DNA of 32,179 bases from a virus. Lineage: Duplodnaviria; Heunggongvirae; Uroviricota; Caudoviricetes. The stretch is from IMG/VR virus record IMGVR_UViG_2939521961_000007. The stretch is one strand, 5' to 3'. Positions 3,001 to 6,000 of the stretch are shown here, one piece after another. Position 1 is the first letter of the stretch; each line of letters starts with the position of its first letter. Position numbers: made by a program.

Positions 3001-6000
3001 TGTTTGCGCATTGATGCCGAGATACGCTTCCAGTCTTCGCGGTCGTTGTCGATAACTTCATTTTTTGCCCAGCGATGGATGCTGCCGTCAATGTTTCCGG
3101 CATCCACATCACCAGGCCAGAGAGCGTAGGCCAGTTCTTCATCCAGCGTTTTCCATGTCTGCTTGTATTCGCGACAAATGGCGGCAGTGACTGGGTTGAT
3201 TTTTCCTGCTGAGTTTTCAGTGTTCTGTTGATTGACTCTGGCGCTGGCGAGATCAACAACAGACGTGTATTTTCCAGTCTCTTTGCGCTCTGCGTCCTGC
3301 CGTTTTTTCCAGTTACGTAATTCAGCCTGAATTTCGGGCCATTTGGCACCCGGATTACATTTGTGTTTAACCCATCCGATAGCGAACAGTTTGCGTTCCG
3401 GATACATAGCGTTAATTTCAGGCGTTTTCATCAGTGCTTCAACGATATGCCCGTCAAAGGTAGCAACGTCTTCCTGCAGTAATTCCTGCGCGTCAATCGC
3501 CATATCAACGGTGATGTTTTCACATGTACCGAACTTAACCAGGACCGCGTTCTGTACTTCAAGGGACAGCTTGTCAAAATTGACGTTCATCGGATCGGAT
3601 TCTGGTTCGACCGGAATAAAGGAAGCGGATTCCTCATCCCAGCGGTTTTCCTGCATATATTCAGCATCCCAGGAATCGAGGGCAGGGCGGGGTATACCGG
3701 GTTTATCCTCGCAGACAAGAAATTTATAAGCGCAGTCCTGAGCAGCCGGATAATGTTCCAGGAATTGCCAGTGAAATTTTGCGCGGGCGCGACGTTCATC
3801 ACCGGCTTCAATGGCAGTGGCTACAGCGACGGCACCTTCTTCCTTTATTGCCTGTTCGTCCGGAATGGCGGCGCAAATAAAGACTTTACTCATTTTGTTT
3901 TAACCTCATTACAGATTTCAGGGTGAACGAATCCCTGCCATTGCTGGCATTTTTAATCCGTTGGTATGGCGTTAATATGGCTGGCGGGTTATCCAGCCGG
4001 TATTTCGTTATTCAGGTTCAGCGATACTTTTTTTAACGGGAGGCATTCACCGGGGATTTTTTGTTCGTCCCTTACCTGAATGCAGGATGACTTACTGTCA
4101 TAAATTCCGGTAATCACATTTTGTGGCTCACCCGTTATAAGAAAAACGGTCATCACCAGTGCAAATGCTGAAGTCACTGCTGTTCTCCGATAATACCAAG
4201 TTCAAGAAGGGCAATTCTGGAAAGTATGGAATTATCATTGAGAAGATAAGGTTCATATTTTCTCATCTTAATGGCATCTTCCGTAAACTCCCGGTTACTG
4301 AGCAGAACACCAATATCAAAACAACCTTCAGACGTATTAACGTTTGGTAATAACGTTTCCATTATCGCGTCCTCAACAATGAATTTTGTGATGCGGTGCC
4401 TGGTGCCTCCAGGTGACGTTAACCAGTTAACAATTAACGCCGGATACAGAGAATCCACCCATAACACTGTTTTTGGTTTTAACTGTTCCGCGTGCGCTCA
4501 GCCGCATTCACCACATCACAAAATTCACTTTAAAAAGGGCGGCAGAGCAGTCACGGAGTAAAACTGATACCGCCAAACGTCACCAGAAAATTGATAACAG
4601 AGGGCGTTGCAGCGGGGTTGTCACTTAAGCGTATGGTCAACCTGACAACCCGGTGTCCTCAACGGGGAAGGAATAACCCCTCCATACTTACCGCCGCGCC
4701 ATTTCGCGGATTGCCACAACCGGAAGCGCACGGTCGACGAAAATTTAACGACAGGCTATCTATGAACCAGCTACCTCGCCGTGCGCTTTCGCGTTATGGT
4801 CTGACTTTTCAGAGAAATATCCTTTCAGTAAACTGTCAGTGCCGGATGTTCACCCGTGTCCGGCGCACGCACTCCACTTCACCCGTGGAGAACTCCTTAA
4901 TTACCAACCCTCAGGAGGGTGAATGTTAAAATCAACTCTTATTGCTAAATGCCTTTATCAAAATCGCATGGTAAGCAGCATTTCAATAGGCGAGTCTGCA
5001 GTTAAAAGTATTTTCGAAGAGTACTTTCCCGGGCATGATTTTAATAAATGGAATACCAAATTACCGCCAGCAGTTTCAACGCGTATTCTGAAAGCAACCG
5101 AAAGAGCAAGTACAATTCGCGTTAACTATTTCATTAAAGATTTGTGGGATCTTTGATATCCACAGAGCCTAAAGTATGTGCATATGGATGTGCTATTATG
5201 CGCCCTCGCAGATTTGCATCATTTTCTAAATTCACTGAACGAAACAGGGCATCAACAAGGCTCTGTACAATGCAAAGGCAATCGAAGACTGTCGCCGTTT
5301 CTGTTTTGATTGATGAAAGAACATGGCCATTCACGCAAACAGAAATTACCCGTTTATTAACATCGCTTTCCTGCTTTTGATTATCAGAACCATATAGCCC
5401 AGAAAAAGCATTGCGCACATTACGAACCATATTATCGATGGTTTCTTTTTCTGCGGTACTAAGGTCAAGAGTAGCCAGTTGTGAACGAACTATATTCGAT
5501 GCCATTTCCTGTAATGGCGTTGGTAAATCTTTAAATTCCATTATTAGCCTCGTTGGTTAGCTATTAACGTGGGTATGTAATCATTCTGGCAATGCTTAAT
5601 GCCGCTGCTTTTTCCAGATTGGTGATATCCTGCTCCAGAGCGGACAGATTTTCAGCCTGCTTAGCCCTGGCTTCATTGGCCCATTTCAGGTCCTGCACCG
5701 CCTTAATTTTCTGGTGCATCCACTCATAAAGTTCATCATCGGTATAGTCTGGCGCGATGATGACGGGGTCTCGTTTCTGCATGTCGGCTCCTTGTGGTTA
5801 GCGTTGCCTGCTTTTTAACCACGTCAGGCGAGGTGGTATCCTCTGAGGGGTCTGTTACTCGAGAGGAAATTGGTTATGAATACAATCAAGTTTTCTTGCC
5901 CAGAATGTGGTGGCTAAGTCTTTGACACATCCTTTAAGCCGCAGGGCTCTGACAGTTTCGCGGGAGCCATCTGCAAAAATTGTGGTCACCTTGTAACTGA

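Follow-up and report, generated by a model that had tools for sequence, protein, structure and literature searches.

The Qin prophage of Escherichia coli K-12 carries the dicBF operon, ydfABC-dicF-dicB-ydfDE, which is controlled by DicA and DicC. The small RNA DicF represses ftsZ translation by base pairing, and the K-12 pairing has been proven with compensatory mutations (PMC5069750). DicF is processed from a polycistronic transcript of the DicA-repressed promoter dicBp. RNase III and also RNase E have been shown to do the processing, and a promoter inside the operon was not found (PMC10448788). K-12 cells build up DicF during stationary phase, and a subpopulation shows spontaneous firing of dicBp (PMC10448788). 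The DicB protein, together with MinC and ZipA, removes Z rings; ManYZ-dependent entry of phage DNA is also blocked (PMC6832061). DicB activity needs N-terminal residues 2–14, of which L5 is critical; position 2 is required but tolerates A, G and R, the three substitutions tried (PMC4967827). The last 8 amino acids are dispensable, and C-terminal deletions of 12–20 residues weaken activity (PMC4967827). In K-12, YdfD binds IspG and is a protein of lysis rather than of division inhibition. Lysis was reduced by every deletion at either terminus, removal of Leu63 among them, and also by replacing Leu63 (PMC8835842).

Strains of EHEC O157:H7 (Sakai, EDL933 and 86-24) have several dicF copies across their lambdoid prophages (PMC5069750; PMC7873438). 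Work reviewed in PMC7873438 links these copies to the control, at low oxygen, of stx2 and the LEE regulator PchA, with activation of pchA and repression of stx2 by DicF shown in O157:H7. Lambda Kil and the SOS inhibitor SulA bring about the same outcome, Z-ring loss and filamentation upon prophage derepression. Both proteins are unrelated to DicB and have no RNA arm; unlike them, DicB works via MinC and not directly on FtsZ (PMC6832061). Lambda Kil is also ZipA-dependent (PMC3961180).

A complete dicF-dicB-ydfD cassette in a PPompW-type prophage

We analysed a stretch of viral DNA of 32,179 nucleotides (IMG/VR record IMGVR_UViG_2939521961_000007), hereafter the window. PPompW, a defective lambdoid prophage next to ompW in E. 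coli E2865, is 99.96% identical to the window. The prophage lacks head and tail genes, and several neighbouring genes are frameshifted. A sequence-only reading had placed a complete cell-division inhibition module at positions 3989–4590. Our analysis confirmed that this interval carries a full dicF-dicB-ydfD cassette like the one described for Qin; dicF, dicB and a ydfD-like ORF are all present, and all lie on the minus strand, which the sequence-only reading had left unspecified (Table 1). E. coli E2865 and eleven deposited PPompW prophage records share 801 bp of the cassette at 100% identity, which rules out a chance match. Used as a query, the 801 bp matched 7 places in E2865, and the 3′ half of the cassette has one copy only in that genome.

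The cassette is real but ordinary. Some three in four complete E. coli genomes have one; DicF sequences occur in 3969 of 5426, with up to 7 copies per genome. The dicF-dicB-ydfD module as such is already known and holds no surprise for specialists. The PPompW type represents a second DicB/YdfD-like allele class, found in ~15% of complete E. coli genomes, and 785 genomes have its dicB allele in intact and annotated form. The O157:H7 isolate SRCC 1675 (L004) has the same DicB allele class, with 3 amino acid differences. Unlike the EHEC O157:H7 copies, the cassette described here is in an ompW-integrated prophage and an O145:H28-type background.

Table 1. Features of the dicF-dicB-ydfD cassette and its surroundings. 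Positions are those of the window.
Feature	Position	Strand	Basis
int, after xis	1–1131		annotation
xis, after exonuclease	1109–1357		annotation
Exonuclease, intact, 823 aa, downstream of ydfD	1422–3893	−	PF16473 (Rv2179c-like), 226.6 bits
ydfD-like ORF (DUF1482), 62 aa, GTG start	3989–4177	−	PF07358, phrog_1092
dicB, 62 aa, ATG start	4174–4362	−	PF05358, NF049927, RefSeq dicB
Four-helix structured spacer RNA	4390–4518	−	fold; covariation across 12 homologues
DicF U-run, UUUUU	4536–4532	−	directly after 3′ stem-loop
DicF small RNA, 53 nt	4537–4589	−	Rfam RF00039; K-12 identity; fold of 3′ stem-loop and U-run
Untranslated 5′ leader of dicF	4590–4909	−	near-identical to K-12
orf135, upstream operon gene, absent from K-12 Qin	5134–5541	−	phrog_1363, 160.8 bits
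ydfC homologue, upstream operon gene	5564–5782	−	95% nt identity to K-12 ydfC; E2865 annotation
First gene of operon, 99 aa, replaces K-12 ydfA and ydfB	5855–6154	−	RefSeq CDS
Conserved transcribed leader of dicBp-like promoter	6285–6227	−	95% identical to K-12 region just upstream of ydfA
dicBp-like promoter (TTGACC, 18-nt spacer, TAAATT)	6320–6291	−	promoter scan; −35 aligns with K-12
DicA-type repressor, 135 aa	6419–6826	−	NCBIfam NF007257, 241.6 bits (cut-off 101); Pfam HTH_3
Cro-like (Cro/CI) gene, divergent from DicA-type repressor	6903–7130		annotation

DicF is identical to its K-12 counterpart

DicF had been described as present base for base, with the U-tail of its terminator, and this was borne out. 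All 53 nt match the K-12 locus (L002) exactly as a string, and TTTTTAAA comes directly after. Identity to K-12 also takes in the U-tail and some 300 nt of flanking sequence. Both target-pairing regions of K-12 DicF, the 5′ region for xylR and the 3′ region for ftsZ and pykA, are kept in the match. The sequence scores 76.7 bits with the Rfam model (gathering score 48, E 1.8e-15) and covers it in full (1–52 of 52). The fold has a GC-rich 3′ stem-loop with a 7+5-bp stem (−15.9 kcal/mol, z −2.2). A simple terminator scan of positions 3800–7200 did not call this terminator because the loop is too long for the scan rule. In RefSeq, dicB is annotated at the locus and there is no feature under the DicF match.

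The ftsZ gene of E2865 is identical to that of K-12, both from −150 to +60 and over the entire CDS. Hence, with the host ftsZ leader unchanged, DicF function carries over directly. The calculated energy of the duplex between DicF and the ftsZ leader was −38.5 kcal/mol, a value that does not discriminate, as 103 of 1000 dinucleotide shuffles were as good; the method, duplexfold, takes no account of structure within each RNA and is biased towards long, spurious duplexes. The case for DicF-ftsZ pairing therefore rests on sequence identity to the validated K-12 pair.

DicB and the YdfD-like peptide belong to a second allele class

The base-for-base identity holds for DicF and does not extend to the two proteins; identity to the K-12 counterpart is 61% for DicB and 48% for the YdfD-like peptide. 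Nor does dicB follow dicF immediately, as had been stated. The two are separated by 174 nt, the same length as in K-12. The expected DicB of 62 amino acids was recovered. It matches both Pfam PF05358 (129.5 bits, cut-off 27) and NCBIfam NF049927 (111 bits, cut-off 100) over residues 1–62 of 62. We also ran the alignment to K-12 that the sequence-only reading had proposed; DicF is identical at 53 of 53 positions and DicB at 61%.

The 24 of 62 DicB residues that differ from K-12 are mostly among residues 36–62. Residues 1–15 are those of K-12 except for K2E, and E16D is nearby. The N-terminus thus reads METLLPNVNTSEGC, compared with MKTLLPNVNTSEGC in K-12; K2E is the sole change and Leu5 is kept. 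At the other end, the segment that matches the dispensable last 8 amino acids of K-12 DicB is divergent here. The C-terminal region does matter, since the longer K-12 deletions, of 12–20 residues, weakened activity. Against four other alleles of the PPompW class, dN/dS for dicB is 0.10–0.13, and the gene is under purifying selection. The conserved N-terminus and a dN/dS of ~0.1 suggest that the PPompW allele would function as a division inhibitor.

Nucleotide homology to K-12 (96%) ends within dicB, near position 4251. Hence, a different lineage is the source of the whole of ydfD and of DicB's C-terminal half. The position of this break suggested a co-adapted cassette, made up of the DicB C-terminus and YdfD. 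We rejected this as a strong claim because of a counterexample; at locus L007, a PPompW-type DicB lies beside a K-12-like YdfD. The DicB and YdfD halves are thus interchangeable in nature.

The YdfD-like peptide was also where it had been reported. It scores 56.4 bits with Pfam PF07358 (cut-off 25, residues 4–61) and 112.8 bits with phrog_1092. The start of the ORF and the dicB stop share 4 nt (GTGA, 4174–4177), for which the K-12 counterpart is ATGA. The EQKIPG motif is kept, and C32 and C45 align with both cysteines of K-12 YdfD. The peptide ends EIPAG at Gly62 without a counterpart of K-12 Leu63, and so its termini are not complete. Hence, we file it as a DUF1482/YdfD-like peptide and not as a proven lysis protein; lysis by the peptide is uncertain. 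The dN/dS of the ORF is ~0.35. No NCBIfam model names the peptide, and a PDB sequence search returned no usable relative for either it or DicB.

A probable distant promoter for the cassette

The cassette is not autonomous. The equivalent of dicBp is ~1.7 kb upstream, near positions 6291–6320. A consensus scan for promoters and terminators across positions 3800–7200 gave counts no higher than in shuffled sequences. The dicBp-like site alone was kept from the promoter scan because it aligns with K-12 dicBp. As in Qin, the order is repressor, promoter, small ORFs, long leader, dicF, spacer, dicB, ydfD, exonuclease and int. DicF, the leader of ~320 nt and the 174-nt spacer are 99–100% identical between the two, and ydfC is 95% identical; the 4-nt overlap of dicB and ydfD and a DicA-family repressor are also shared.

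Conversely, several parts differ from Qin. A 99-aa ORF takes the place of ydfA and ydfB; in a longer version of this ORF, residues 20–118 match phrog_21318 (222.5 bits). Between ydfC and the leader there is a 634-bp insertion relative to K-12 (4910–5543), which contains orf135 and the plus-strand orf77. A different allele makes up DicB's C-terminal half and the YdfD-like peptide in its entirety. IS2 disrupts the exonuclease, xis and int in K-12, where ydfE is the truncated counterpart of the exonuclease; here, all three are intact. The exonuclease matches phrog_2082 over its full length, and all ORFs of the operon are intact. The operator repeats differ from those of K-12. Hence, regulatory inputs may differ. 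By analogy with Qin, the cassette would be repressed by the DicA-like protein via the dicBp-like promoter.

Structured RNA on both sides of dicF

The 5′ leader and K-12 are almost identical in alignment over positions 4680–4590, and the blastn match reaches 4909. The leader fold has a z of −2.75 and includes an 86-nt hairpin at 4714–4799. This hairpin spans the expected RNase III cut (5′ end ~4726) that gives the 190-nt DicF precursor. A permissive-threshold Rfam scan of positions 3900–6500 returned DicF and a sub-threshold STnc100 match only, with no known family in the 5′ leader. The STnc100 match is to the spacer RNA (38.7 bits, threshold 47).

As a single sequence, the spacer RNA folds at −70.4 kcal/mol (z −4.9). 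Across 12 homologues, 14 of the 30 predicted pairs have compensatory changes. In the alignment, 98.3% of cells are paired, which none of 500 shuffles reached. Position 4518, where the spacer helix begins, coincides with the 3′ end expected for the reported 72-nt DicF; the helix is probably the RNase III site for that end. As a separate observation, other phages also have the structured spacer RNA, upstream of kil and of tciA.

A proposed mechanism and its alternatives

We hold it very likely, as one joint proposition, that the region forms the distal portion of the early-left (PL-equivalent) operon in a defective PPompW-type prophage of an STEC O145:H28-like host, and that the cassette works as follows. 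The parts are located in the window and the activities are taken from K-12. In the lysogen, the DicA-type repressor (6419–6826) would hold the dicBp-like promoter (~6291–6320) off. Derepression would yield one polycistronic minus-strand transcript of orf99, ydfC, orf135, the leader, dicF, the spacer, dicB and the ydfD-like ORF, which probably runs on into exo-xis-int. RNase III and RNase E would excise DicF. Its 3′ end would be set either by its own stem-loop and U-tail (53 nt) or by RNase III cutting the spacer helix at its base (72 nt). Together with Hfq, DicF would pair with the ftsZ ribosome-binding site and lower FtsZ synthesis. DicB would bind MinC and, via ZipA, bring it to midcell, where Z rings would be dismantled. 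A block to ManYZ-dependent phage DNA entry would be a by-product of this DicB-MinC action. The YdfD-like peptide would be translationally coupled to dicB through the overlap. If it is like K-12 YdfD, it would bind IspG and lyse dividing cells; IspG or HMBPP would rescue this lysis, and DicB would counteract it. The processing pathway, the MinC, ZipA, ManYZ and IspG interactions and repression by the DicA-like protein are modelled on the K-12 papers; binding of the MinC C-terminal domain by the PPompW-type DicB, and its need for ZipA in blocking Z rings, are likewise predicted. The two mechanisms of division block invoked by the sequence-only reading are real in the literature, namely DicF-ftsZ pairing (PMC5069750) and DicB with MinC and ZipA (PMC6832061). 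Its mention of an effect of DicB on phage receptor function also has a published basis in the ManYZ-dependent block (PMC6832061).

The differences from K-12 allow for another outcome, in which the PPompW-type DicB and YdfD-like peptide have functionally diverged and only the DicF arm works as in K-12. DicB might then retain the K-12 activities in part only, for example by excluding phages with no strong effect on division, or might prefer other partners. The YdfD-like peptide might be no lysis or IspG-binding protein at all. The identities of 61% and 48%, the end of the 96% homology near 4251 and the other lineage beyond it fit such divergence. So do the missing Leu63 of the YdfD-like peptide, the weaker constraint indicated by its dN/dS of ~0.35 and the lack of an NCBIfam model naming it. 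However, DicB matches DicB HMMs end to end and above curated cut-offs, its mapped N-terminus (PMC4967827) is conserved, and a dN/dS of ~0.1 indicates a maintained protein. Furthermore, both K-12 DicB phenotypes use the same MinC contact (PMC6832061), and so splitting them would take more than C-terminal drift. The combination at L007, with interchangeable halves, also argues against divergence, which we regard as unlikely.

We give even less credence to a silent relic in a decaying prophage, with no meaningful expression and no effect on the host. The prophage is indeed defective, with head and tail genes gone and neighbours frameshifted, and the DicA-like protein is expected to repress the operon. 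For EDL933 in standard culture, few reads are listed for the DicF copies (PMC5331693, Table 1). Conversely, the ORFs of the operon are all intact and dicB is under purifying selection. DicF is 100% conserved, the leader and spacer structures are conserved with compensatory changes, and DicF is kept, with up to 7 copies per genome, in 3969 of 5426 complete genomes. Stationary-phase accumulation and spontaneous dicBp firing in K-12 (PMC10448788) also count against silence, as does DicF of EHEC, which is reported to be induced by low oxygen and to activate pchA (PMC7873438).

The cassette matters a little as annotation. RefSeq marks dicB without dicF, and the RNA arm would therefore escape anyone who reads the record. 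The background strain is an attaching-and-effacing, Shiga-toxin-type E. coli, in which an additional identical DicF copy would mean more gene dosage in the PchA/stx2 circuit. In the literature searched, we found no functional test of the PPompW-type DicB or YdfD-like alleles. These alleles are natural variants for mapping the DicB residues that contact MinC, ZipA and ManYZ.

Relatives of the spacer RNA in other prophages and phages

We tentatively raise the possibility, which we think somewhat doubtful, that the spacer is a mobile cis-acting RNA module found directly upstream of unrelated host-killing genes in different phages. Its placements would be at dicB (Qin-type), kil/kilR (Rac-type and Stx phages) and tciA/terB (P1-like), and the same tentative reading includes a distant kinship of the spacer to the prophage sRNA family STnc100/PasD. 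Such a module may gate downstream genes, via RNase III processing or structure-dependent control of mRNA stability or translation. Free-standing STnc100-type sRNAs of late regions may be derived from the spacer element.

The spacer RNA has 80–87% nucleotide identity to copies in Rac-type regions (dicF-like terminator, spacer, kilR) and P1-like phages (spacer, tciA/terB). In these, the spacer is ~20–40 nt upstream of a small gene that kills the host or inhibits division. That gene is kil/kilR or tciA, and not dicB. The P1-like copies are without the DicF part, and their match spans positions 86–209 of the query only. For Rac, dicF-like sequences were probably described by Faubladier and Bouché in 1994 (J Bacteriol 176:1150).

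The dicF-dicB-ydfD cassette and its source

The sequence-only reading placed a complete dicF-dicB-ydfD module at positions 3989-4590. This observation is confirmed; the coordinates are accurate to the base, all three elements lie within them, and we add that the module is on the minus strand. The interpretation offered is supported, with corrections concerning strand, spacing, allele divergence and the role of YdfD.

Features of the cassette and of the remainder of the window
Feature	Position	Strand	Comment
ydfD-like ORF	4177..3989	-	62 codons, GTG start; DUF1482, family of K-12 YdfD
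dicB	ATG at 4362	-	62 codons; Pfam and NCBIfam DicB models
Structured spacer RNA	4390-4518	-
DicF	4589..4537	-	53 nt; Rfam match plus one extra 5' U
Leader 5' of dicF	4590-4909
Leader hairpin	4714-4799		86 nt
Insertion relative to K-12	4910-5543		634 bp, between ydfC and the dicF leader
77-aa ORF	4923-5156	+	strong AGGAGG ribosome-binding site
135-aa ORF	5134-5541	-	operon orientation
Conserved transcript start	6227-6285	-	~60 nt
DicA-type repressor	6419-6826	-	NCBIfam DicA model, 241.6 bits (cut-off 101)
Cro-like gene	from 6903		diverges from repressor
paa	10758-11516		adhesin gene
hok/sok	11705-12007	+	type I toxin-antitoxin; Rfam sok 103.9 bits; hokD annotated 11852-12007
tRNA cluster	15138-15378	+	downstream of Q antiterminator gene
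Late-region STnc100	16157-16329	+	100.8 bits (threshold 47)
Tail-fibre repeat	20652-20790 / 24720-24859		140-bp direct repeat, 92.9% identical
Second integrase	23733-24727		degraded

Along its full length, the window is 99.96% identical to positions 1739402-1771580 of the bovine E. coli isolate E2865 (Japan). The prophage adjoins ompW, and the 801 bp around the cassette are 100% identical in eleven deposited records of this 'PPompW' prophage. On the minus strand, the order is DicA-type repressor, promoter region, a 99-aa ORF, ydfC, the 135-aa ORF, leader, dicF, spacer, dicB, ydfD-like ORF, an intact 823-aa exonuclease gene, xis and int.

DicF is identical to the K-12 copy

When the whole window was scanned with Rfam, the DicF model (RF00039) matched in its entirety at 4588..4537 (76.7 bits; gathering score 48). 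The 53 nt are an exact string match to the copy in the K-12 Qin prophage, TTTTTAAA comes next in both, and the RNA folds with the expected 3' stem-loop and U-run. The description of DicF as present base-for-base with its U-tail is thus correct, but holds only for DicF because dicB and the ydfD-like ORF diverge from K-12.

K-12 dicF lacks a dedicated promoter. [quoted passage not shown] Leader and spacer hardly differ from K-12, so the window has the same processing substrates, and the leader hairpin spans the position near 4726 where the 190-nt species is expected to begin. By analogy, the same two enzymes would release DicF from a polycistronic transcript. Repression of ftsZ by DicF pairing at the ribosome-binding site was proven with compensatory mutants (PMC5069750), and DicF from the window would be expected to act likewise. 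This step transfers without sequence inference because E2865 and K-12 do not differ in the ftsZ leader or coding sequence.

DicB and the YdfD-like peptide are divergent alleles

The reported DicB length of 62 aa is borne out. The protein aligns with the Pfam DicB model over its whole length (129.5 bits, cut-off 27) and also exceeds the NCBIfam cut-off (111 vs 100). Contrary to the initial description, dicB does not follow dicF immediately; a spacer of 174 nt separates them. DicB is 61% identical to its K-12 counterpart. Residues 1-35 are nearly the same, whereas the C-terminal half differs. N-terminal residues essential in K-12 are conserved, Leu5 among them, and substitutions at position 2 are tolerated (PMC4967827). 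The last eight residues, where the window allele also diverges, are dispensable in K-12 (PMC4967827). In comparisons with four further alleles of this class, dN/dS is 0.10-0.13. From the family cut-offs, conserved N-terminus, dispensable divergent end and dN/dS, we infer that this allele functions as DicB.

[quoted passage not shown] The window DicB may act in both ways. Hence the suggested effect on phage receptor function has a published K-12 precedent. The proposed block of FtsZ ring assembly by two mechanisms agrees with K-12 work for DicF and DicB; it does not extend to YdfD, which in K-12 is a lysis protein.

The start codon of the ydfD-like ORF overlaps the dicB stop by 4 nt (GTGA). The assignment as YdfD-like stands in so far as the DUF1482 match scores 56.4 bits (cut-off 25), but the peptide is only 48% identical to K-12 YdfD. 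It retains the two cysteines, the EQKIPG and EIPAG motifs and a hydrophobic N-terminus, but the final Leu63 is missing; dN/dS is about 0.35. K-12 YdfD, an IspG-binding protein, makes dividing cells lyse, an effect that DicB counteracts; loss or substitution of Leu63 weakens lysis (PMC8835842). We consider the chances of lytic activity in the window peptide to be roughly even.

The operon is a mosaic relative to K-12 Qin

From about 4909 to the first third of dicB, including leader, DicF and the whole spacer, identity to K-12 is 96-100%. The megablast match ends near 4251, inside dicB, and nucleotide identity beyond is ~60%. The junction thus falls within the coding sequence, at about 4251-4305. 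A related locus in E. coli E28 (L007, 1024-2191) combines PPompW-type DicB with a K-12-like YdfD, so the junction is not a fixed linkage. In this locus, a Rha-family regulator gene interrupts dicB, leaving a 5' fragment followed by a complete PPompW-type dicB.

K-12 has ydfA and ydfB in place of the 99-aa ORF, and its exonuclease gene, xis and int, all intact in the window, are cut by IS2. The two ORFs of the 634-bp insertion converge with a 23-nt overlap and match phrog_1363 and phrog_10348, families of unassigned function.

Identity to K-12 dicBp is 95% across the -35 hexamer and the initial 60 nt of the transcript, despite different flanking genes. This transcript start holds a small GC hairpin, CCC-GGCGTTAA-GGG, and may act as a conserved signal of the leader, for example a nut-like site. 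Because the repeated operator-like motifs differ from those of K-12, the window repressor probably has another specificity.

The spacer is a conserved structured RNA

Folding of the spacer as a single sequence gives a multi-branch structure with a long closing helix (-70.4 kcal/mol, z -4.9). Its match to STnc100, an Rfam prophage sRNA family, is sub-threshold (38.7 bits vs 47, E about 5e-7). In a sensitive search of phage genomes, the spacer core was found at 80-87% identity in three settings. In Rac-SA53, several E. coli phages and Shigella phage 75/02 Stx, kil/kilR follows it after ~20 nt; in P7 and D6 it precedes tciA/terB; the third setting is a Klebsiella phage. RNAalifold on 12 aligned homologues gave four helices with 30 pairs, 14 showing compensatory changes. 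In this alignment 98.3% of cells are paired, a value reached by none of 500 shuffles, and slid controls gave at most 3 pairs. Therefore, from covariation and the neighbouring genes of its homologues, the spacer is a conserved structured RNA common to operons in which the next gene is host-killing or division-blocking.

Most simply, the spacer would be the site of RNase III processing that has been described in K-12; the conserved part of the closing helix starts at 4518, the expected end of 72-nt DicF. A broader cis-regulatory role is possible. The spacer and the full-score STnc100 of the late region have a recognisable core in common; the latter is flanked by a DUF3927 gene and the gene for a SASA-family esterase.

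Distribution and the remainder of the prophage

Of 5426 complete E. coli genomes, 3969 matched a 67-nt query around DicF, at 6402 places in total and at most 7 in one genome; 3045 records matched at 99% identity or above. The divergent 3' half, encoding the DicB C-terminus and YdfD-like ORF, occurs in 809 genomes (785 with full coverage), where the annotation gives dicB and a DUF1482 protein. RefSeq of E2865 (NZ_AP018808.1) annotates dicB and has no feature under dicF; likewise, no feature underlies the DicF match among the genome matches listed. Multiple dicF/dicBF copies in O157:H7 prophages are on record (PMC5069750; PMC7873438). The cassette is a textbook, widely distributed and already known module in a known prophage type. 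Some novelty resides only in the spacer, as a structured RNA with ties to STnc100-type sRNAs and to the leaders of kil and tciA.

The prophage is defective. Downstream of the lysis genes are only tail-fibre and antirepressor gene fragments and type III effector genes, and no head or tail genes were found in the annotation of the window. Within the tRNA cluster, Rfam and RefSeq call Ile/Met-CAU and Arg-UCU; ARAGORN alone calls a third tRNA between them (15215-15290, anticodon TTT). The region 19889-32179 contains the repeated tail-fibre C-terminal fragments, the second integrase, IS remnants, an antirepressor fragment, and nleA (frameshifted), nleH1-2, nleF, nleG and espM1.
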